64,000 nt of DNA from Bacteriovoracia bacterium. GTDB taxonomy: Bacteria; Bdellovibrionota; Bacteriovoracia; Bacteriovoracales; Bacteriovoracaceae. The notes under the pieces are model-generated. The model was not told the DNA's origin. It was given only the letters and a program-made list of their open reading frames with translations, and made no database searches. This document shows, one piece after another, positions 1,045 to 7,919 of this stretch; position 1 is the stretch's first letter, and every line of letters starts with the position of its first letter. The position numbers were made by a program, and so were the translations under genes. Where the stretch lies: positions 71,230-135,229 of the forward strand of contig JBKHVI010000001.1 in the NCBI GenBank assembly GCA_046570105.1. The letters run 5' to 3'.

Positions 1045-1539
1045 ATGTGCCGGCATGGCCGACAATTTCTCTTTGTTTTTATTCTGCTTTTAGCAGGATG
1101 CTCTTCGCTTGTTCCCAAAAAAGCTCCACCGGTAAAAGACAAAAATCTTCACATCGTTTTTCCTAATGATGACTGGGGAATGATTGATGCTCGAACAAGC
1201 GATCATGCGTGGTCACACAAAAAACGTGGCGATGTCATCGTGCTAAATTCTTTTTGTGGCGAATTTCAATCGCTCCCCCTTGAGTCTTTGGCACTCAAAA
1301 CTTTTCAAACATACCCAGGCTTTCAACCACTCGGAAAAAGAACTATCGATTGGTTTGAGCGTGAAGCCTTTGAAATGGAAGCTGAAGCACTGGTGGATGG
1401 AGTCAAAGTCCTCATTTATATGCGCAATTATCGGCGTAATCACTGCTACTATGACTTCGTCCTTATTACTCCACGCCAACGTGACCCGCAGACCTACCAG
1501 GCCTTCCGCGAACTCTTAAATGGCGTAAGGTTTAAATGA
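1045..1539 (+). CDS. lipoprotein of unknown function, first gene of the mla operon
   Basis: Within ORF 961..1539, the internal ATG at 1045 gives MCRHGRQFLFVFILLLAGCSS, a signal peptide plus lipobox LLAGC. Its stop overlaps the mlaE start (ATGA). Confidence 0.6.
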   Translation: MCRHGRQFLFVFILLLAGCSSLVPKKAPPVKDKNLHIVFPNDDWGMIDARTSDHAWSHKKRGDVIVLNSFCGEFQSLPLESLALKTFQTYPGFQPLGKRTIDWFEREAFEMEAEALVDGVKVLIYMRNYRRNHCYYDFVLITPRQRDPQTYQAFRELLNGVRFK

Positions 1540-2297
1540 TCACCAAAGCTAAAGATAATTTAGAATTTGTCGGCGAGATGATTGAACTCATCTGGCAAAC
1601 GACCAAGGCCATCTTTAGCCGCCCCTTCTACTGGCATCGCCTGAACGAACAGATCATTGAACTGGGCTCTCGCTCACTTTCAATTACTCTCGTGATCGGC
1701 TTTGTGATGGGTCTGGTGATGACTCTGCAATTTGGATACGGACTCGCTAAGTTTGGCGGGACACTTTATGTGCCGGCGATTGTTTCTCTCTCACTTATCC
1801 GTGAGATGGCGCCAATTTTTACATCACTTCTTGTGGCAGGACGAATCGGTTCAGGTATTGCTGCTGAGATTGGTGCTATGAATGTGACTCAACAAATTGA
1901 TGCCATCCGCGCGCTGGGCACTTCACCTATTCGTGTTTTAGTCGTGCCAAGAGTGGTGGCAGGAATCGTGACTCTGCCTCTACTAGGAATCCTCGCCACT
2001 TTCATGGGAATCATCGGCGGCATGATTATCGCACGCACAGAATTTGATATGGCCTTTGGTTTTTATATCAACAAAGTTCTTGCGACGATTCGTCTCCACG
2101 ATGTCTTTAGCTGCTACATCAAGTGCGCCTTCTTCTCGGTAGTCATTACTCTGCTTGCTTGCTGGCGCGGTTTTCAAACCAAGGAAGGTACACGTGGCGT
2201 TGGTGAAGCGGCCACGTGGGTCGTGGTGCGTTCATCCATAGTGATTCTTATCTCTGACTTCTTTTTGAGCAAGGTACTTATCTTGCTCTTTGATTGA
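1536..2297 (+). CDS. mlaE: MlaE-family ABC transporter permease
   Basis: The 253-aa multi-TM protein has the typical MlaE/YrbE pattern (ITLVIGFVMGLVMTLQ, REMAPIFTSLLVAGRIGSGIAAEIG, IDAIRALGTSPI). It is followed by the matching ATPase and MCE genes. Confidence 0.85.
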   Translation: MITKAKDNLEFVGEMIELIWQTTKAIFSRPFYWHRLNEQIIELGSRSLSITLVIGFVMGLVMTLQFGYGLAKFGGTLYVPAIVSLSLIREMAPIFTSLLVAGRIGSGIAAEIGAMNVTQQIDAIRALGTSPIRVLVVPRVVAGIVTLPLLGILATFMGIIGGMIIARTEFDMAFGFYINKVLATIRLHDVFSCYIKCAFFSVVITLLACWRGFQTKEGTRGVGEAATWVVVRSSIVILISDFFLSKVLILLFD

Positions 2298-2305
2298 GGC
2301 CAGCC

Positions 2306-3034
2306 ATGCAACAAATTTTACAAGTCAAAGACCTCAAAAAAAGTTTTGGCAGCAAGTCTGTCCACAACGGAGTTAATTTCGTCCTTCACAAAGGTGAAAC
2401 AGTTGGGCTATTGGGCAACTCGGGCACAGGTAAAAGTGTTCTCTTGCGATGCTTGATCGGACTTGAAACGATGGATGATGGTGAAGTCTGGTTTGAAAAA
2501 AAGCGCATTGATCTTCTTAATGAGGCACAGATTCTTAAAATCAGAACACGCATATCCTATGCCTTTCAAAGTGGCGCTCTCTTTGACTCACTCAGTGTCT
2601 ATGACAATATCGCCTACCCTGTTCGTGAACATTTAAAAATGAATGAGACGGAAGAGTCTCATAAGGTACATGAAATGCTTCGGCTCGTGCGTCTTGATGA
2701 ATCAGCGAAACTTTTTCCGTCAGATCTCTCAGGTGGTATGCAAAAGCGCGCAGGCCTTGCCCGCGCCATGGTGCTTTCGCCTGATATTATTCTTTATGAT
2801 GAACCAACAGCGGGTCTTGATCCCGATAACGTAGAAAACGTACTAGAGATCATGCGCACTTTTAAAAGTCGCGGAGTCGCAGGCATTTTTGTGACTCATG
2901 ATATTCCAGCTGCCAAAAAAGTTTGTGATCGCTTGTTAATTATAGATCATGGGCAAATTGCCTTCAGTGGATCAATTACAGAATTTGAAAATAGCACTAA
3001 CCCATTTGTTAAACGCTTCCATACCACGGACTAA
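2306..3034 (+). CDS. mlaF: MlaF-type ABC transporter ATP-binding protein
   Basis: Walker A GNSGTGKS, signature LSGGMQKR and Walker B ILYDEPTAGLD are present. The ATG at 2306 has GAGG 6 nt upstream; the TTG at 2294 is the track start. Confidence 0.85.
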   Translation: MQQILQVKDLKKSFGSKSVHNGVNFVLHKGETVGLLGNSGTGKSVLLRCLIGLETMDDGEVWFEKKRIDLLNEAQILKIRTRISYAFQSGALFDSLSVYDNIAYPVREHLKMNETEESHKVHEMLRLVRLDESAKLFPSDLSGGMQKRAGLARAMVLSPDIILYDEPTAGLDPDNVENVLEIMRTFKSRGVAGIFVTHDIPAAKKVCDRLLIIDHGQIAFSGSITEFENSTNPFVKRFHTTD

Positions 3035-3043
3035 GAGGATTTT

Positions 3044-3838
3044 ATGCGCGCACAAGACAGATCAAATCTCGTTAAGGTCGGCATCTTTGTTACATCCTTA
3101 ACTATCGTGCTAGCGATCATGATTACCGCCATCGGGAAAGAGTCCTCGATGTTTAGTCCTAAGGCGATCATCAAAGCGCGCGTAATCAACGCAGAAAATC
3201 TCAAAGTCGGCTCTACCGTTGAGCTAAGAGGTCTTCGTATCGGCCATGTGGAAGAAATTAGAATTGTGGGCTACCAGTCTGTAGAAATTCTCATCAATAT
3301 CATCGCTGAAAACTTGCGCTGGATTCGTAAAGACAGCAAAGTCGCTATCAGCAATGCTGGTTTGGTGGGTGACAAGTATCTTGAGATTCAGGGAGGCACT
3401 GAGGAAGGCGGAGACTTTAACCCCGAGTCTGATGTACTGCTGTCAGAGCCTAGCCTCGACTTCAAAGCTATTGCCACTAAAGGTGGCAACATTGCAGACA
3501 AAGCAGATCGCGTCCTCGACAAATTAGAATTGATGTTAGTAGCGATAGATGCCAAGAAACTTGCCGTGACCGTCGATGGACTCGCTAAGACTGCCGACAA
3601 TCTTGGAAAAGCTACTGGCCCTTTAGTTGCAACTTCTAAAAAGCTCGAAAGTGCTTCAGAGCGCTTTGATGCTGTCATGACTCGTGTGCAGAAAGGCCCC
3701 GGCACCGCTCACTCGCTCGTTTATGACGATGGTCTTTACGAAGATCTGCGCAAACTGATGGGCGGTGCTGAACGCAACTCCATTATCAAGTACTTCATCC
3801 GCGAATCAATTAAGAAGGCCCCGCCCAAAGAAGACTAA
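3044..3838 (+). CDS. mlaD: MlaD/MCE-family substrate-binding protein
   Basis: It has an N-terminal TM anchor, then an MCE-like fold signature (VGSTVELRGLRIGHVEEI, AGLVGDKYLEI). It is the third gene of the mlaEFD arrangement. Confidence 0.8.
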   Translation: MRAQDRSNLVKVGIFVTSLTIVLAIMITAIGKESSMFSPKAIIKARVINAENLKVGSTVELRGLRIGHVEEIRIVGYQSVEILINIIAENLRWIRKDSKVAISNAGLVGDKYLEIQGGTEEGGDFNPESDVLLSEPSLDFKAIATKGGNIADKADRVLDKLELMLVAIDAKKLAVTVDGLAKTADNLGKATGPLVATSKKLESASERFDAVMTRVQKGPGTAHSLVYDDGLYEDLRKLMGGAERNSIIKYFIRESIKKAPPKED

Positions 3839-3868: not shown

Positions 3869-4168
3869 CTACTTATCAAGAAGAAACTTCAAATATCCAA
3901 GTGATATCGACATCGAAGTGAGCGTCATGGTGAGCATCATGGCCCCTAGCTTGAGAGTTAGTCGAGTTTCGAGGTGATTCATTTTTTCATCGATTAATCG
4001 GACGTGCTGGTCAAAACGATCGTTCCATCTATCATCGAGAGATTTGAAATCGTCCTTAGTCGCCAAATTTTGAATTGAGTCGGACATAAGATTCACCGTC
4101 TCCTCAGCTTGCTTTCGAGTAAAACCCACCATCTCAAGTCTCTTAGTATACTTCAAATCACTGTACAT
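3869..4168 (-). CDS. small coiled-coil protein with C-terminal TM helix (DUF1640-like)
   Basis: The 99-aa protein has a TKDDFKSLDDR..HLETRL coiled-coil followed by a hydrophobic tail GAMMLTMTLTSMSISLGYL. The family assignment is by pattern recognition only. Confidence 0.5.
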   Translation of the reverse strand: MYSDLKYTKRLEMVGFTRKQAEETVNLMSDSIQNLATKDDFKSLDDRWNDRFDQHVRLIDEKMNHLETRLTLKLGAMMLTMTLTSMSISLGYLKFLLDK

Positions 4169-4294: not shown

Positions 4295-4975
4295 TTACTC
4301 GCCTCTTTCTTGTACTAACCCCGACGAACCGAGCCACTGAAAGAAGGCAGCAACGGCTTCTTGATCTTCGGGTGCATGTTCCAACGCAAGCCCGAGGCCA
4401 AAAGGTAGCGCCTTTAAAACATCTTCTTCCCAACGTGTGAGTCGACGAAAATGCAACCCCGACTCTTTCATCCAAAAAAGGATTCTTTGCGAAGCATGGT
4501 CACCAATTTCTTGTGTTTGATAAAGCTCCATCACTGGATATGAAAATTCCTGGATATCTAACGGGGCCAACACTAACTTCGTTTCTTCATCCATAGAAGG
4601 CAATGGCAGCACTTTGAGTCGTTCATGCGTCCAAGGATGAATCTCCATCGCCCATTCAAAGCGCGCGAGCTCGCACGTTGCCAAATCCTTTTCATTGCCC
4701 ATTATGAATTGCAAAAAAACTTCACCGAAAAAATCCAACGAGCGTGGTGAGTGAGGTTTAGATTCCCAGAAACTTGTCCATAAACTCTCCCACTTCTCCC
4801 CCATATGAATCTTGGTTTGGGGAAAAGTCTCTTCAATGGCTTCTCTAATTTTTGATTGGTGCTGATAGCGATAATGCTCAAGCGCAATCTGTGCACTGGC
4901 ACTCTTGGCCCCGATTAAATCAAGCGTTGGGTTCTCGCCTTTCATCCCGAGTTTAAATTGCTCAAACCAATTCAT
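4295..4975 (-). CDS. DUF2063-family RiPP maturase partner (BufC/HvfC/MbnC-like)
   Basis: The 226-aa protein has a DUF2063-like N-terminus (LEHYRYQHQSKIREAIEETFPQT, PRSLDFFGEVFLQF). Its ATG overlaps the stop of the upstream DUF692 gene (ATGA). Confidence 0.75.
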   Translation of the reverse strand: MNWFEQFKLGMKGENPTLDLIGAKSASAQIALEHYRYQHQSKIREAIEETFPQTKIHMGEKWESLWTSFWESKPHSPRSLDFFGEVFLQFIMGNEKDLATCELARFEWAMEIHPWTHERLKVLPLPSMDEETKLVLAPLDIQEFSYPVMELYQTQEIGDHASQRILFWMKESGLHFRRLTRWEEDVLKALPFGLGLALEHAPEDQEAVAAFFQWLGSSGLVQERGE

Positions 4976-5766
4976 ACCGACCTCTGCAGTTTCAGTGCTT
5001 GATCAAGAATGGGTTTGACTTCATCGAAGTTGGGAATATCCGCATCCCACTCAATCATAAAGGGAATATCGTTTCTGCGCTTACAAGCCTCAGACCACAA
5101 CTGCCAGGTTTTCTCATGAGGCGGCTTAGAATGGGTATCAATGACAAAATGCTCGCCTTCGCTGAAACCAGCTAAATGCACTTGGGCCACTTTAGTGAGA
5201 TTAAGATGATTAAGCTCTTGAATGGGATCAATACCAAAGTTAATGGCATTGACGATCATATTATTCACATCGAGTAGAATCTGGCAGTCAGTGCGCCGAC
5301 AGAGTTCTGCTAGAAATACATATTCAGTCATTTCATTTTTATTTGTTGTTATATAAGCGGAAAGATTCTCTAAGATAAGCGGACGCTTGAGTGTGTCCTG
5401 CCACTTGAGAACCTTCTTAGTAATTAATTTGAGATTTTCTTCTGTATAGGGAAACGGCAATAGGTCATGCCAATGATGACCGCCAAGAGAGGACCAGCAG
5501 AGATGATCCGAAATACGTTCTGGTTGAAATTCATCTGCAAAAACTTTGAGTTCTTGCAGATATTTTTTGTCATGTTCTTCAGGTGCTGCCAGTGAGAGCG
5601 AAACTCCGTGAAATGAGAGCTCGTAATTCTCGCGCAGCTTACGCAGTGTTTGGCGACGAGTGCCTTTATCCCAAAGATAATTTTCGGTGATAATCTCAAG
5701 CCACCCGATCTCCGCGTGGCCTTCAATTAAGGCATCAAAAAATGGGGCCCGGAAACCGAGCCCCAT
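4972..5766 (-). CDS. MNIO (multinuclear non-heme iron oxidative enzyme, DUF692/UPF0276; MbnB/BufB/HvfB-like)
   Basis: Characteristic DUF692 motifs are present: GLGFRAPF, FHGVSLSLA, ISDHLCW, LILENLSAY, LLDVNNMIVNAINFG, QVHLAGF, VIDTHSKP. I chose the start at ATG 5766, 7 nt after the precursor stop. The track N-terminal extension to 6000 overlaps the precursor gene in another frame. Confidence 0.85.
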   Translation of the reverse strand: MGLGFRAPFFDALIEGHAEIGWLEIITENYLWDKGTRRQTLRKLRENYELSFHGVSLSLAAPEEHDKKYLQELKVFADEFQPERISDHLCWSSLGGHHWHDLLPFPYTEENLKLITKKVLKWQDTLKRPLILENLSAYITTNKNEMTEYVFLAELCRRTDCQILLDVNNMIVNAINFGIDPIQELNHLNLTKVAQVHLAGFSEGEHFVIDTHSKPPHEKTWQLWSEACKRRNDIPFMIEWDADIPNFDEVKPILDQALKLQRSV

Positions 5767-5773
5767 GGTTTTA

Positions 5774-6034
5774 CTAGCCGCAGCCATTAGCGCCGCAACC
5801 GTTCTTTTCTTCTTTACCGTCTTTCTTCTTACCTTCAGCAGTTTTGCAAGCATTCTTGCCGTCTTTTGACTTGCACGAGTGCTTACCATCTTTTGATTTG
5901 CAAGAGTTCTTGCCTTGGCAACCAGCTTTCCCTTCTTCTGTTTTCTTTTCGTCATGGTTATGTGCCAAAGCACCCTGACTTCCCAAAAGCATTCCCGCAA
6001 CTGCCACTGACATTAACAACTTTGAATTTTTCAT
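5774..6034 (-). CDS. RiPP precursor peptide: Sec signal peptide plus Lys/Cys-rich core (bufferin/HvfA-like class)
   Basis: The 86-aa ORF has SD GGAGGGG 7 nt upstream and the signal MKNSKLLMSVAVAGMLLGSQGALA. The core HNHDEKK...GCGANGCG carries 6 Cys and an SCKSKDGK(H/N)xC tandem repeat. It lies immediately upstream of the MNIO gene. Confidence 0.75.
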   Translation of the reverse strand: MKNSKLLMSVAVAGMLLGSQGALAHNHDEKKTEEGKAGCQGKNSCKSKDGKHSCKSKDGKNACKTAEGKKKDGKEEKNGCGANGCG

Positions 6035-6053
6035 ATATATGCCCCTCCAGGCT

Positions 6054-6071
6054 TTGAGTCTTCTGACTCAA
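6054..6071. promoter_or_regulatory. perfect inverted repeat TTGAGTC-TTCT-GACTCAA in the divergent control region
   Basis: Seen directly. It lies 20 nt upstream of the precursor ATG and 39 nt upstream of the sigma-factor ATG. Confidence 0.4.
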
Positions 6072-6109
6072 TGGTTTTCAGTTGATGTTTCTCGTGCTCA
6101 AATTGTGAC

Positions 6110-6703
6110 ATGAAATTCATTGAAGACAGCACATTTCGCCAGGCCTTCCTCAACTCAGAGCCACAAGCAGTAAACGCCTTTGTTGAGCACTTTGTGACAG
6201 TCCTCAATAAAATAGGTTTCGCCCAGGGGCTAAGTCGTGAAGAAGCCGAGGATGCTGTACAAGAATGTTTCAGTGTGTTTTTTCGCAAGCTGCCAGAAAT
6301 ACACGACAACGTAAAACTCTCCACTTTCCTCTTTGGCATCCATCTCAATAGTGTACGTGAGGCCCGTCGTCGCAGAGGCAAAGTAGAGTCTCATGGTGAT
6401 CTCGCGGCCATTGAGCATCTCGTCTCTCAGCAATACGATGAAAAAGGACACTGGAAAACTGGAGTAGCACCTAAGCCTATTGATAAAGTGCTCGAAGACG
6501 AGGCCAATGCCAAACTGCAAGATTGTATCAAGGGACTTCCTGATAAGCACAAAGAAGCCATCTTTCTCACTTTAAGCGAAGACAGCGACGGCAAAGATCT
6601 CTGTCACATATTGGGTGTGAGTTACGCTAACTTTAGACAGCTCCTCACTCGCGCCCGACATGCTCTGCGCTTGTGCCTGGAAAATTATGTGGGAGAAGCG
6701 TAA
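6110..6703 (+). CDS. ECF-type RNA polymerase sigma-70 family factor
   Basis: The 197-aa protein has region-2-like (AEDAVQECFSVFFRKL) and region-4 HTH-like (ILGVSYANFRQLLTRARHALR) segments. It is followed by an overlapping anti-sigma gene. Confidence 0.8.
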   Translation: MKFIEDSTFRQAFLNSEPQAVNAFVEHFVTVLNKIGFAQGLSREEAEDAVQECFSVFFRKLPEIHDNVKLSTFLFGIHLNSVREARRRRGKVESHGDLAAIEHLVSQQYDEKGHWKTGVAPKPIDKVLEDEANAKLQDCIKGLPDKHKEAIFLTLSEDSDGKDLCHILGVSYANFRQLLTRARHALRLCLENYVGEA

Positions 6704-6933
6704 TGCTCACTTGCCGCCAAGTACCCGATGCGCTCGAGAAAGAACCTAAGACTCTCAAAGACAGAGTTCAATTACGTTTTCATTTATTCATCTGTGCGCG
6801 CTGCCGTGCCCTTGAAGCGCAATATAAGGCTCTCTCCAGTGGTCTTAAACGTCTCATCGACACCGCACCACCGGCCAATCCCGAATTGGTTAAAAAAGTG
6901 CTGGAAGATTTTAAAAATCAAAAGAAAGACTGA
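6703..6933 (+). CDS. zinc-binding anti-sigma factor (ZAS, HxxxCxxC), apparently soluble
   Basis: The ATG overlaps the sigma stop (TAATG). The sequence MLTCRQV...RFHLFICARCRALEAQ carries the H-x3-C-x2-C motif. No TM segment appears in the 76 aa. Confidence 0.6.
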   Translation: MLTCRQVPDALEKEPKTLKDRVQLRFHLFICARCRALEAQYKALSSGLKRLIDTAPPANPELVKKVLEDFKNQKKD

Positions 6934-6988
6934 TTTCAAGGCGTTGCGAATATTTCGATTAAACGCAACCCTGTGCTATAATCAATTC

Positions 6989-7360
6989 ATGTCAAAAAAG
7001 AAAAAATCCTCCAACTCCACATCCATTCCTCGCCAAGATCGTCTTGCATTGTTAGAAGCCCGCGTGAAAGCGATGACTAAAGAAATGCAAGCAATGCGGG
7101 AGAGAATGATGGAGATTGAACAACAGGCAAGTCTTGGTCACAACGTGATGCTGACCACCCAAGAAGCTGCTGAATATATCGGTAGCTCAAGACCTTATGT
7201 GATAAAGCTCATCGAGGAAGGCAAACTTCCTTGTGAAATGGTGGGCACGCATCGTCGCATAAGTATCGAGGCGCTTAATCGCTACAAAGAAGAGCGACGC
7301 GAACACAGGACAAAGGGTCTACTTGAATTACAAAAATTAGAGCAAGAACTCGGTATTTAG
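6989..7360 (+). CDS. excisionase-family helix-turn-helix DNA-binding protein (putative antitoxin)
   Basis: ATG 6989 lies just downstream of a perfect TATAAT (6977-6982). LTTQEAAEYIGSSRPYVIKLIEEGKLPCEMVGTHRRI matches the HTH_17/excisionase pattern. The stop is 1 nt before the PIN gene. Confidence 0.65.
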   Translation: MSKKKKSSNSTSIPRQDRLALLEARVKAMTKEMQAMRERMMEIEQQASLGHNVMLTTQEAAEYIGSSRPYVIKLIEEGKLPCEMVGTHRRISIEALNRYKEERREHRTKGLLELQKLEQELGI

Positions 7361-7361
7361 T

Positions 7362-7919
7362 ATGAATAATCTAAAAGCGGTTATTGATACCAACGTGCTC
7401 TATAGCTCGATGGCGCGAGACATTCTGCTGTGGCTAGCAACCTATGACTTATTTCAACCCGTATGGTCTGAAAAAATTCTGCAAGAGCTCTACTTTGCGC
7501 TCAAAAAACTACCTAAAACTGAGCGCGTAAAACTCATCACTCGTCTTAAAGAAGTTTTTCCAGATGCTTTGATCGAACAACTTCCAGAGACTGGCACAAT
7601 CCACCTCCCCGACGAAGATGATCTTCATATCGTGGCCTGCGCGCTTGCCAGTAATGCAGCTACTATTATCACTTTTAATCTCAAAGACTTTCCGGCGGAT
7701 GAACTGGCACCTATTAAAGCCATTTCTCCAGATGATTTTTGTCTCAATTTACTTGAACAGAATGACTTGATGGGCATCAAGGCGATAACTATCCACTGGA
7801 GAGGTTATCAAAATCCAAAAATTTCTTGGGAAGAATATACCGCGCGCTTGAATCGCGCGCGGTTACATAAACTTAGTCGTAAATTGAAAAAACTAGACCT
7901 CAGTTCCGCCGGTCTCTAG
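7362..7919 (+). CDS. PIN-domain protein (putative toxin ribonuclease)
   Basis: AVIDTNVLYS is an N-terminal acidic motif, and DEDDLHIVACALASNAATIITFNLKDF is PIN_3-like. It is tightly coupled to the upstream HTH gene. Confidence 0.65.
   Translation: MNNLKAVIDTNVLYSSMARDILLWLATYDLFQPVWSEKILQELYFALKKLPKTERVKLITRLKEVFPDALIEQLPETGTIHLPDEDDLHIVACALASNAATIITFNLKDFPADELAPIKAISPDDFCLNLLEQNDLMGIKAITIHWRGYQNPKISWEEYTARLNRARLHKLSRKLKKLDLSSAGL

Follow-up and report, generated by a model that had tools for sequence, protein, structure and literature searches.

A divergent bufABC-like operon, probably of the bufferin/captophorin class, in a predatory Bacteriovoracia bacterium

Background

More than 20,000 bufferin/captophorin clusters have already been reported, which puts this class among the largest of the RiPPs, and the bufABC gene order is strictly conserved. 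In bufferin 2 of Caulobacter vibrioides (BufA2-BufB2-BufC2) a Sec-exported precursor is followed by an MNIO (DUF692) enzyme and a DUF2063 partner. BufA2 is made of two near-perfect 18-residue units (DKHACKGQNACKGQGGCKT) with cysteines spaced x5/x6 throughout. Four of its cysteines are each lighter by 4 Da and there is one disulfide (PMC11626156). Bufferins are induced by copper and protect against it, the buf2 operon has no DoxX gene, and DoxX is dispensable for bufferin 1 (PMC11626156), the BufABCD system whose precursor BufA1 carries a DUF2282 domain with four cysteines. All the characterised products of MNIO-PME1 pairs contain 5-thiooxazoles, and the oxazolone/thioamide originally described for HvfA (oxazolin) has since been reassigned to that group (PMC13097082). 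The captophorins include a Lys-Cys type, with EGKCG repeats, and a Cys-Lys group, defined by multiple Cys-Lys motifs in the precursor and by an MNIO in which the second Arg is lost and no Phe follows the catalytic Asp (PMC13097082; Gadgil et al. 2026). Methanobactin (MbnABC) is a secreted chalkophore with oxazolone/thioamide groups, released from a cleaved leader in MbnA.

The window analysed here is a 64-kb stretch of DNA from a predatory Bacteriovoracia bacterium. A first-pass annotation had proposed that it holds a RiPP operon whose MNIO and DUF2063 protein act on a Cys-rich peptide exported by Sec, of the kind seen in copper metallophores, and that the peptide might represent a new precursor subclass. 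The first proposal was supported; the second gave way to a different placement. The operon is best explained as a new, divergent representative of the known bufferin/captophorin class, not as a system of a new kind, and it most likely yields an exported, Cys-modified, copper-binding peptide.

Results and Discussion

Operon structure and conservation

The three minus-strand genes are as tightly coupled as the first-pass annotation had described, and their order matches that of bufABC (Table 1). The precursor gene starts at the ATG at 6034, behind a strong Shine-Dalgarno sequence (GGAGG, 6044-6048), and stops with TAG at 5776-5774. A 7-nt gap, TAAAACC, separates it from the MNIO start codon, and the sequence ATGA at 4975-4972 combines the MNIO stop with the ATG of the partner.

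Table 1. Coordinates of the operon and associated features in the window.
Feature	Position	Strand	Evidence
bufA-like precursor gene, 86 aa	5774..6034	-	ORF, Shine-Dalgarno, homologues, synteny, BufA2 profile comparison
Signal peptide, residues 1-24	5963..6034	-	inspection, hydropathy
Precursor core, 62 aa	5777..5962	-	
27-nt (9-codon) imperfect tandem repeat encoding SCKSKDGK(H/N)	5844..5914	-	TRF: 2.6 copies, 77% matches
MNIO (DUF692) maturase, BufB-like, 264 aa	4972..5766	-	Pfam, NCBIfam, PDB match, motifs
Terminator-like hairpin: 11-bp stem (8 G-C pairs), 3-nt loop, then UUUUUU	5742..5766	-	scan, fold, conservation
DUF2063/PME1-type partner (BufC-like), 226 aa, translationally coupled to MNIO	4295..4975	-	Pfam, AF2, Foldseek
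Candidate ECF-type operon promoter: TGTCACA, 16 nt, CATCAA	6082..6110	-	motif conservation
Divergent ECF-type sigma-70 factor, 197 aa	6110..6703	+	NCBIfam TIGR02937, Pfam
Small soluble zinc-binding (ZAS-type) anti-sigma, 76 aa	6703..6933	+	NCBIfam, Pfam, invariant ligands

Conservation of the small ORF beside the MNIO was borne out in relatives. In each of the 13 related loci examined (L001-L013) the gene next upstream of the MNIO encodes a homologous peptide; the named relatives are all MAGs of Bacteriovoracia/Bdellovibrionota. The precursor-MNIO-partner order extends to L014 and L019. Within the 13 the order holds even where a 47%-identical peptide sits in an unrelated neighbourhood. The precursor has 12 homologue clusters in a database of 5.8 billion proteins. 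The small ORF might be spurious, or an unrelated secreted peptide, with the MNIO acting on something else. The NCBI label 'hypothetical protein ACLGG0_00435' is all that speaks for this, the substrate role being assigned by analogy. The strong Shine-Dalgarno sequence, the position 7 nt from the MNIO, the strictly conserved gene order, and the conservation at the protein level of more than 20 homologues, with in-frame repeat indels and always immediately upstream of an MNIO, make it extremely unlikely.

In agreement with the first-pass annotation no DoxX gene adjoins the operon, and tblastn of the 64 kb was negative, a weak test as a single DoxX sequence was the query. Its absence had been taken as a mark of novelty. 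It is not unusual, because the buf2 operon of Caulobacter and the fon cluster also do without DoxX. The BGCs of the CxxxxC precursor family often include Lactamase_B_2 and DoxX (Antoine et al. 2025); neither was seen as a neighbour. A second copy of the MNIO, partner or precursor was not found in the 64 kb, and an Rfam scan of the window gave no family at gathering score.

The MNIO and its partner

The enzyme, labelled by NCBI only as 'DUF692 domain-containing protein', is an MNIO, as first annotated: it matched Pfam PF05114 with E 2e-91, and assignment to a subfamily gave BufB, marginally (NCBIfam MNIO_BufB, NF050167, 313.1 bits against a cutoff of 310). The second-best NCBIfam model was HvfB (217 against 360); MbnB scored 61.5 against 325, and ApyH and ChrH also failed. 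The motifs sfHG, sDH, lEN, lDvNN, vHlAG, iDtHs and iEWD align with MbnB and the DUF692 structures, and alignment to MbnB and 3BWW shows that the iron-ligand motifs are kept. The best PDB match was 3BWW (E 5e-32), an H. somni protein treated as a genuine RiPP enzyme of the MNIO-PME1 type (PMC13097082).

Arg-Arg and Asp-Phe are determinants of the Lys-Cys enzymes, of which Cys-Lys MNIOs are reported to keep neither the second Arg nor the Phe (PMC13097082). The window MNIO has GLGFR-A and EWD-A-D, the MNIO of locus L019 has GVGLR-A and EWDAE, and 3BWW has R-R and ERD-F; the comparison is of these three enzymes. Locus L019, a DoxX-BufA2-MNIO-DUF2063 cluster with NrsF and an ECF sigma factor, encodes peptide P0060 and served as the reference for a BufA2-linked MNIO, because the canonical BufA2 peptides P0168 and P0125 come from stand-alone or DoxX-linked genes with no MNIO. 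The window MNIO shares with bufferin 2 both a pass on the BufB model and Cys-Lys-type neighbours of the active site. That it is only 38% identical to the L019 enzyme, and barely over the BufB cutoff, counts against a bufABC-type assignment.

The DUF2063 annotation of the partner was likewise upheld, by Pfam PF09836 (27.9 against a cutoff of 27.2). Its sole NCBIfam match was HvfC, at 27.7 against 142. A sequence search of the partner against the PDB gave no matches, and therefore its structure was predicted and searched with Foldseek. The AF2 model (pLDDT 89.1, pTM 0.83) had as its top PDB matches 3DEE (NGO1945; E 3e-6, TM 0.60/0.66) and TglI (8HI7_A; E 5e-5), while MbnC (7TCR_C) was matched with E 2.0. 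On this model the partner is of the PME1 type, with a predicted DUF2063 N-domain and an RRE-like C-domain.

The oxazolin (HvfABC), fontiphorin (FonABC) and gonophorin systems have the same enzyme-partner pair, whose folds match 3BWW and 3DEE, and likewise a Sec-exported, repeat-containing precursor rich in Lys, Gly and Cys; the minimal set of three genes is that of fon. HvfB and HvfC are the runner-up and the only NCBIfam match of the two proteins, and the strings EEGKAGC and DGKxxC in the core loosely recall EGKCG. We nevertheless regard an HvfA-type (Lys-Cys, EGKCG) system as very unlikely. As the first-pass annotation had stated, EGKCG is missing, and the core has no Lys-Cys dyad; Lys follows Cys instead of preceding it. 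The MNIO has neither Arg-Arg nor Asp-Phe, both model scores are far under their cutoffs, and FonBC is reported in the literature not to have processed substrates such as NACKG, in which Cys precedes a charged residue. The reading thus effectively failed on the motif, on HvfB and on HvfC.

The relation to methanobactin is more general. There too an MNIO-family enzyme turns Cys of a ribosomal peptide into a copper ligand, as is supposed here by analogy, but the window partner is DUF2063/PME1 and not MbnC, a Sec signal peptide takes the place of the cleaved leader, and the product would be a periplasmic buffer with 5-thiooxazoles rather than a secreted chalkophore. The first-pass annotation had quoted oxazolone/thioamide for HvfABC as well, which the reassignment has superseded.

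The precursor peptide

The Sec-type signal peptide proposed in the first pass was evident by inspection and from hydropathy. It comprises a charged n-region (MKNSK), a hydrophobic core (LLMSVAVAGMLLG, 9-residue Kyte-Doolittle mean up to 2.3) and SQGALA with an A-x-A site, followed by HNH. This layout and the ALA-H site are conserved across the family. In some relatives the signal peptide contains 'LVSC', and a lipoprotein reading of it was rejected; the Cys comes only some 10 residues into the sequence, ahead of the hydrophobic core. The predicted mature N-terminus, H-N-H, is of the X-X-His kind, a classic site for Cu(II)/Ni(II).

The core has 16 Lys, 11 Gly and 6 Cys, and all six Cys contexts recorded in the first-pass annotation were confirmed. 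The cysteines are at residues 39, 45, 54, 63, 80 and 85 (spacings x5, x8, x8, x16 and x4), and C45, C54 and C63 form Cys-Lys dyads. The imperfect tandem repeat noted earlier is real at the DNA level, and its nine codons make up the 'spacer + Cys' module by which the core varies. Homologues have 4-7 Cys, of which only four positions are invariant or nearly so. The first and last motifs do not vary, and the number of Cys modules between them does. The window core ends C-GANG-C where most relatives have C-SGANG-C (x5). An AlphaFold prediction from a 13-sequence alignment was uninformative (pLDDT 46, no confident fold). BufA2 is reported as predicted to fold, and this difference counts against the bufABC-type reading.

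Relationship to BufA2

No curated precursor HMM was passed (Pfam to E <= 10, NCBIfam to E <= 1). There was no match to HvfA, nor to DUF2282 even at E <= 10, which bears out the earlier impression that the core is not of that type, and the other matches were collagen-like low-complexity noise. The NCBIfam BufA2 model (NF050166) gave the window peptide 10.7 bits (E 0.47) against a cutoff of 60, so that it fails that model as well. This shortfall and the want of a Pfam match weigh against the preferred assignment, and so do a family range of 4-7 Cys in place of a strict 6/12 and spacings that differ from those of BufA2.

Profile comparison nevertheless relates the two. Members of the window peptide family scored 10-29 bits on the BufA2 model, P0096 scored 55 and P0060 passed with 68, and a profile of the family itself retrieved peptides at or above the cutoff, P0060 among them. 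When the core, stripped of its signal peptide, was aligned with canonical BufA2 by hhalign, the probability was 94.3% (E 1.1e-7, score 39) and the six window cysteines paired one-to-one with Cys I-VI. The reversed control gave E 0.35, and 60 column shuffles scored 11.1±3.1 with a maximum of 20.6. These comparisons indicate that the precursor is a distant relative of BufA2. The Cys-Lys group of captophorins (PMC13097082) accommodates both peptide and enzyme, because the core has three Cys-Lys dyads and the MNIO lacks Arg-Arg and Asp-Phe and shares EWDA(D/E) with the BufA2-linked MNIO of L019.

The window peptide resembles bufferin 2 in its Sec signal peptide, in motifs of the x-N-x-C-K-G type and in a core of about 61-62 aa, whose six Cys align with Cys I-VI in the profile comparison. 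It differs in that its units are spread by Lys/Asp/Glu-rich spacers containing the 9-residue repeat. Further differences are the variable number of Cys in the family, the lack of a confidently predicted fold and the X-X-His mature N-terminus. With bufferin 1 it shares the MNIO and DUF2063 partner, Sec export, contexts of the G-x-N-x-C type around the modified Cys and, frequently, ECF sigma/anti-sigma genes nearby; the DUF2282 match, DoxX and the four-Cys folded domain are missing, and the anti-sigma is of the ZAS type rather than NrsF.

The claim of a new subclass can be set against these results. It implies a precursor class unrelated by descent to BufA2, with Lys, Gly and Cys composition reached by convergence, on which the MNIO may install a different pattern or type of modification. 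MNIOs are chemically versatile, so that another modification is conceivable under the bufABC-type reading too, a point against it. Failure on every curated precursor HMM, the variable Cys count with long Lys-rich spacers, the low-confidence structure prediction and the modest identity to a Buf2-type MNIO are all compatible with it, and the landscape paper concedes hundreds of unclassified signal-peptide Cys peptides beside mega-cluster MNIOs. Convergence is, however, an unlikely explanation for a BufA2 profile match well above the reversed and shuffled controls with six Cys in register, for intermediate sequences whose BufA2-model scores rise step by step, and for an MNIO that passes the BufB equivalog cutoff and carries Cys-Lys-type determinants. 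The peptide also fits the published operational Cys-Lys definition. The new subclass is therefore set aside in favour of divergent BufA2 ancestry.

Hairpin and putative regulatory genes

The terminator-like hairpin spans the MNIO start codon and the first 8 codons. It folds at -26 kcal/mol (z -4.8), and 11 loci of the family share the GGGGCUCGG/CCGGGCCCC stem. The codons it imposes are rare in the host genome (GGG 10%, CGG 4%, CTC 20%, GCC 23%; joint 1.8e-4). Covariation was not above that of shuffles, as the one compensatory cell was equalled in 125 of 500, and the case for the hairpin accordingly consists of its sequence conservation and the use of rare codons. It may act as an attenuator or occlude translation, and would thereby set the ratio of precursor to enzyme.

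The sigma factor scored 51.2 against 42.9 on NCBIfam TIGR02937 (sigma70-ECF), with weak matches to Pfam Sigma70_r2 and r4_2. Its gene adjoins the operon in L001-L003, L006 and L012, and a 30%-identical homologue occurs at the distant L014. The anti-sigma gene overlaps the sigma stop codon by 1 nt. Its product matched NCBIfam NF052368 with E 5e-9 (35.9 bits against 50) and Pfam zf-HC2 weakly; C4, H27, C31 and C34 (C-x22-H-x3-C-x2-C) are invariant in five homologues, including that of L014. Inspection of the 76 residues showed no long hydrophobic stretch and no apparent transmembrane segment. RsrA, the archetype of the soluble ZAS anti-sigmas, senses disulfide stress. In Caulobacter, bufferin 2 is controlled by a distant SigF/NrsF pair, whereas here regulation is apparently by the adjacent genes.

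The -35-like element of the putative promoter abuts the start codon of the sigma gene. Among the sigma-linked loci, L001, L006 and L012 all carry the conserved motif TGTCACAATTTGA-N11-CGTTAACTG ahead of the precursor gene, and in L006 this conservation is independent of the GAATTT block, because a 25-column insertion separates the two. Relatives carry CGTTAA at the -10-like site and the window's CATCAA departs from it at two of six positions; this degeneracy in the host genome is a point against the proposed regulation. A strict search for further TGTCACA-N15-19-CGTT sites found one in the window, inside the sigma ORF, and 16% of shuffles had at least one match; no regulon could be defined.

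Proposed function

Taken together, the data make it probable that this is a bufABC-type operon of the 'Cys-Lys' or BufA2-like group, operating as follows. The precursor would be made in excess, given its strong Shine-Dalgarno sequence and a hairpin and U-tract at the MNIO start that would limit downstream expression. In the cytoplasm the DUF2063/RRE-type partner would bind the precursor and present it to the multi-iron MNIO, which, with O2, would convert some of the six Cys to 5-thiooxazoles by four-electron oxidations (-4 Da each). The likeliest targets are the Cys-Lys/Cys-Gln sites at 39, 45, 54 and 63; on the BufA2 pattern they would be the central four Cys, with a disulfide between Cys I and VI. 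The peptide would then be exported by Sec and cut by signal peptidase I after Ala24, and the Lys-rich mature peptide would buffer periplasmic Cu(I)/Cu(II) through thiooxazole S/N donors, possibly with an additional, ATCUN-like Cu(II) site at the H-N-H terminus. The divergent ECF sigma factor probably switches expression on once thiol-reactive, oxidative or copper stress has disabled the RsrA-like zinc anti-sigma.

The same chemistry could serve another role, such as defence against oxidative or thiol stress, handling of another soft metal, or a predatory function in the prey periplasm. The anti-sigma resembles soluble RsrA and not the membrane NrsF of Caulobacter and L019, and the literature ties MNIO-PME1 clusters to oxidative stress and, through MerC fusions, to mercury. 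Neither DoxX nor cop/cus genes were identified beside the operon and the 64-kb window holds no direct tie to copper, which also counts against the copper-buffer assignment. All characterised members bind copper, though, and those tested protect against it; with the predicted X-X-His terminus, this leaves another role rather unlikely. We would give similarly modest weight to a more elaborate proposal, in which these peptides form a functionally distinct captophorin subclass of intrinsically disordered, polycationic 'beads-on-a-string' metallophores. Gain and loss of the 9-residue repeat would tune the number of thiooxazoles, an N-terminal ATCUN site for Cu(II) would complement thiooxazoles for Cu(I), an RsrA-like ZAS/ECF redox switch and the attenuator hairpin would control expression, and the predator might use the product in the prey periplasm as well as to protect itself.

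Under the bufABC-type reading, the overall picture of what bufferin/captophorin clusters do is unchanged. With this locus the class reaches into predatory Bacteriovoracia, and it becomes clear that divergent relatives rich in Lys escape the curated precursor models NCBIfam BufA2 and Pfam DUF2282. Three features open to experiment add to the design known so far: the junction hairpin, the X-X-His N-terminus and the ZAS/ECF pair. Because Cys modules vary (4-7 Cys) around invariant first and last motifs, the family could also serve as a natural series for the choice of Cys by MNIO/PME1 pairs. The supplements of the landscape and captophorin papers, which give taxon counts only, contain no sequence match to GANGC or KNSCKGK. 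Nine captophorin BGCs are already counted in Bacteriovoracales in the supplement of the captophorin paper (PMC13097082), and for Bdellovibrio the supplements list an MNIO and a DUF2063 protein, with no precursor recognised.

The precursor peptide and its conservation

The three genes of the operon are packed closely on the minus strand (see table), and layout and translation bear out the first-pass annotation, which had described three coupled genes headed by a Sec-type peptide. The N-terminus of the precursor is of the Sec type, judged by inspection of its sequence and composition: MKNSK, the hydrophobic stretch LLMSVAVAGMLLG and SQGALA, followed by H. The core of 62 amino acids contains 16 Lys, 11 Gly and 6 Cys, and its average mass when unmodified is 6495.1 Da. 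The contexts of the six Cys are exactly those listed at first reading, and the imperfect SCKSKDGK(H/N) repeat noticed then is present in the DNA as a 27-nt tandem repeat (2.6 copies, 77% matches). At NCBI the window lies on a 179-kb contig of a Bacteriovoracia MAG, where the five genes MFP5489933-37 are labelled 'hypothetical protein', 'DUF692 domain-containing protein', 'putative DNA-binding domain-containing protein', 'RNA polymerase sigma factor' and 'hypothetical protein'.

Features of the operon and its surroundings, with positions in the window
Feature	Position	Strand	Remarks
Mla genes MlaE, MlaF, MlaD	1536-3838		
99-aa coiled-coil protein	3869-4168	-	C-terminal hydrophobic segment
Three-gene operon	4295-6034	-	closely packed genes
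Partner (DUF2063/PME1) gene, 226 aa	4295-4975	-	its ATG overlaps the MNIO stop as ATGA
MNIO (DUF692) gene, 264 aa	4972-5766	-	ATG at 5766, 7 nt after the precursor stop
Terminator-like hairpin	5742-5766	-	11-bp stem with 8 G-C pairs, then UUUUUU; U-tract to about 5736
Precursor ORF, 86 aa	5774-6034	-	ATG with upstream GGAGG at 6044-6048; stop TAG at 5776-5774
Predicted mature N-terminus, HNH	5954-5962	-	residues 25-27
Inverted repeat	6054-6071		TTGAGTC-AGAA-GACTCAA
Candidate promoter	6082-6110	-	TGTCACAATTTGA-N11-CGTTAACTG; in sigma-linked loci, 45-75 nt upstream of the precursor ATG
ECF sigma gene	6110-6703	+	divergent from the operon
Second TGTCACA-N16-CGTT match	6173-6199	-	antisense, inside the sigma ORF
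Putative anti-sigma gene, 76 aa	6703-6933	+	1-nt overlap with sigma; C4, H27, C31 and C34 invariant (C-x22-H-x3-C-x2-C)
HTH_17-type small gene, then PIN/VapC-like gene	6728-7919	+	PIN/VapC-like gene at 7362-7919

Given cleavage at the aligned A-x-A site, which is an assumed signal-peptidase site, the predicted mature N-terminus is X-X-His in 18 of the 24 family members: HNH in the window and DHH in most of the others. A-DHHE also occurs in many of the peptides recovered by a wider profile search. Such an N-terminus would constitute an ATCUN-type motif, which binds Cu(II) or Ni(II) and is known from the DAHK of serum albumin.

Twelve homologue clusters of the small ORF were found in a database of 5.8 billion proteins, and the order peptide, MNIO, partner was present in every recovered context. 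The order is the same at locus L004, where the peptide is just 47% identical and the neighbourhood is wholly different. A genome scan with the MNIO gave seven species-level relatives, all of them Bacteriovoracaceae, Bacteriovoracales or Bdellovibrionota MAGs, and each has a signal-peptide Lys/Cys homologue directly upstream of the MNIO. The small ORF is a conserved partner of the MNIO, a point that the first-pass annotation had marked for checking and that held in all recovered contexts. In the family alignment an N-terminal G-K-x-x-C-x-G-K and a C-terminal C-(S)-G-A-N-G-C-(G/D) are invariant; between them K-x-S-C-K modules vary in number, giving a total of 4-7 Cys.

Relationship to BufA2

The peptide has no match in Pfam, DUF2282 and DUF7640 included, in agreement with the earlier impression that it is not a DUF2282 protein. 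Against the NCBIfam BufA2 model it scores 10.7 bits (E 0.47), below the cutoff of 60. The same model is matched by 5 of 13 family members, with a best E of 1e-6. A search of 1.84 billion representatives with the family profile retrieved 95 clusters whose members are short, bear a signal peptide and show (D/E)KNSCKGK(D/N)GC-type motifs, and among these the BufA2 scores are graded: 21, 23, 24, 29, 38, 44, 46, 55 and 68 bits. The last of these, cluster P0060, is above the cutoff, and its locus has the genes DoxX-BufA2-MNIO-DUF2063 together with NrsF and an ECF sigma factor. For canonical BufA2, which is built of two copies of DKHACKGQNACKGQGGCKT, the relatives number more than 3,600.

With signal peptides removed, the Bacteriovoracia core profile was aligned by hhalign to a core profile of 67 BufA2 sequences. 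The match has a probability of 94.3% (E 1.1e-7, score 39.0). The window's six Cys pair in order with BufA2 Cys I-VI, and the extra Lys-rich stretches appear as insertions. The similarity goes beyond composition, because the controls score far lower: with the BufA2 alignment reversed, E was 0.35, and 60 column-shuffled versions scored 11.1 ± 3.1 with a maximum of 20.6.

The peptide also has three Cys-Lys dyads and zero Lys-Cys dyads. Gadgil et al. 2026 (PMC13097082) sort the precursors of more than 24,000 MNIO-PME1 loci ('captophorins') into three groups: DUF2282, Lys-Cys (EGKCG) and Cys-Lys (BufA2-like). In their account an Arg-Arg close to the N-terminus and a Phe following the catalytic Asp are conserved in the MNIOs of Lys-Cys systems and lost from those of Cys-Lys systems. 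The window MNIO reads GLGFR-A and EWD-A-D at these places, the BufA2-linked MNIO of L019, the locus of P0060, reads GVGLR-A and EWDAE, and the H. somni enzyme of PDB 3BWW reads GLGYR-R and ERD-F. By these dyads and residues the system falls within the operational definition of a Cys-Lys captophorin. Because of the scores of other family members, the graded series leading to P0060, the core alignment and the Cys-Lys traits, we assign the peptide, on sequence evidence, as a divergent bufferin precursor of the BufA2 (Cys-Lys) type, too distant for the curated models to detect. The new precursor subclass that had been thought possible gives way, by the core alignment and the score series, to a relative of BufA2.

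The maturase and the proposed pathway

The enzyme matches Pfam PF05114 with E 2e-91. MNIO_BufB is the sole NCBIfam equivalog that it passes, and narrowly (313.1 bits, cutoff 310); it is below the cutoffs for HvfB (217 vs 360), ApyH (77 vs 400), MbnB (61.5 vs 325) and ChrH (55.5 vs 600). Its closest solved relative is 3BWW (E 5e-32), and alignments to 3BWW, TglH and MbnB show the metal-ligand motifs to be complete (sfHG, sDH, lEN, lDvNN, vHlAG, iDtHs and iEWD). The partner is marginal by sequence (PF09836 27.9 vs 27.2; HvfC 27.7 vs 142), with no match to the PDB. Its AlphaFold model, from a 24-sequence alignment (pLDDT 89.1, pTM 0.83), has as best structural match NGO1945/3DEE, the founding DUF2063/PME1 structure (E 3e-6, TM 0.60/0.66), and TglI of the TglHI holoenzyme is also among the best. 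The family matches and motifs of the MNIO, together with the match of the partner fold to 3DEE and TglI, identify the pair as a bona fide MNIO-PME1 maturase.

Homology with BufB1/B2, HvfB and FonB suggests that the partner binds the precursor and that the multi-iron MNIO then oxidises selected Cys to 5-thiooxazoles, each with a loss of 4 Da. The peptide would be exported by Sec, cleaved after Ala24, and would chelate copper in the periplasm. The BufA2 alignment predicts modification of the central four Cys and a disulfide between Cys I and VI; the Cys-Lys rule predicts modification of C45, C54, C63 and possibly C39. For this peptide we infer thiooxazole modification and metal binding by homology, the models for chemistry and function being bufferin (PMC11626156) and captophorin (PMC13097082). 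For HvfA, a virulence factor of nontypeable Haemophilus influenzae, copper-binding oxazolone/thioamide pairs installed by a multi-iron enzyme were reported (PMC11252979); the modification has since been reassigned to 5-thiooxazole (PMC13097082).

No DoxX gene adjoins the operon in the window or in close relatives, and tblastn with the single DoxX query of the distant locus L014 found none in the 64-kb window. The absence noted at first reading is not distinctive: in Caulobacter, buf2 consists of bufA2B2C2 and has no DoxX gene, Buf1 matures and functions without DoxX (PMC11626156), and the fon cluster has three genes only (PMC13097082). The distant relative P0019 (8 Cys; L014) has a divergent DoxX and a sigma/anti-sigma pair homologous to that of the window.

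Regulators and upstream elements

The 76-aa protein encoded after the sigma factor looks like a soluble, RsrA-like ZAS anti-sigma factor, with no long hydrophobic stretch seen by inspection, and unlike the membrane NrsF of L019 and other bufferin clusters. Sigma/anti-sigma (NrsF) genes have been reported in Buf1 clusters, not Buf2 (PMC12452194). Both genes are retained next to the operon in one sub-lineage, L001-3, L006 and L012, and also in L014.

The candidate promoter motif is conserved upstream of the precursor in L001, L006 and L012, and in L006 independently, because a 25-column insertion separates it there from a conserved GAATTT block. Its first element abuts the sigma gene ATG and its second element is CATCAA in the window. 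The geometry (7-mer, 16 nt, CGTTAA) fits an ECF promoter. The second TGTCACA-N16-CGTT match is also conserved in relatives, under coding constraint within the sigma ORF; it may be a second promoter or a coincidence, as one or more matches arise in 16% of shuffles. The small inverted repeat, located between the putative promoter and the precursor Shine-Dalgarno, is a possible operator or 5'-UTR stem-loop; L001, L006 and L012 have a hairpin at the same site with other sequence (GGGC..GCCC, TCCCT..AGGGA and GACTC..GAGTC). Loci L008-L010 and L013, without the sigma pair, share another upstream region, containing TATAAT about 30-60 nt from the precursor, which suggests that regulation of the operon differs between sub-lineages.

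The hairpin at the precursor-MNIO junction overlaps the MNIO start codon and first eight codons and folds at -26 kcal/mol (z -4.8). Its stem, GGGGCUCGG/CCGGGCCCC, recurs in 11 loci of the family, with MNIOs 64-96% identical, and is absent from the distant loci L014 and L015. Covariation was not significant. The codons used (Gly-GGG, Leu-CTC, Arg-CGG and Ala-GCC) are rare in the genome, with a joint expectation of 1.8e-4 from window codon usage. A well-known means of keeping a RiPP precursor in excess is to place a partial terminator, or a stem that occludes translation, between its gene and that of the maturase; this hairpin may be such an attenuator or occlusion element.

Comparison with known systems and neighbouring genes

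The system would work like bufferin 2. The peptide does not reach the strict cutoff of curated BufA2, and the system differs from bufferin 2 in repeat architecture, Cys number, predicted disorder of the peptide (pLDDT 46) and regulators. Bufferins are ribosomal peptide metallophores, a widespread family serving adaptation to metal stress (Leprevost et al. 2024, PMC11626156); descriptions of the class date from 2024, and more than 20,000 clusters are on record. Nine clusters in Bacteriovoracales were already counted in the SI of the captophorin paper (PMC13097082), and hundreds of unclassified signal-peptide Cys peptides lie upstream of mega-cluster MNIOs (PMC12452194). No discussion of these systems in Bdellovibrionota was found in the literature searched. 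The value of the locus lies mainly in the annotation gap that it exposes and in the natural series of precursors with variable Cys modules that it offers.

Canonical BufA2 genes of clusters P0168 and P0125 (L016-L018) are stand-alone or DoxX-adjacent only, with no nearby MNIO, which agrees with a published note that bufferin precursor genes in many cases have no linked MNIO gene. Between the operon and the Mla genes lies the gene for the 99-aa protein, which has weak DUF2730 and CCDC90-like matches only; it is missing from this place in L001 and L006, and MlaD there comes straight after the partner gene. The HTH_17-type and PIN/VapC-like genes look like a toxin-antitoxin pair and are syntenic in L001-L003.
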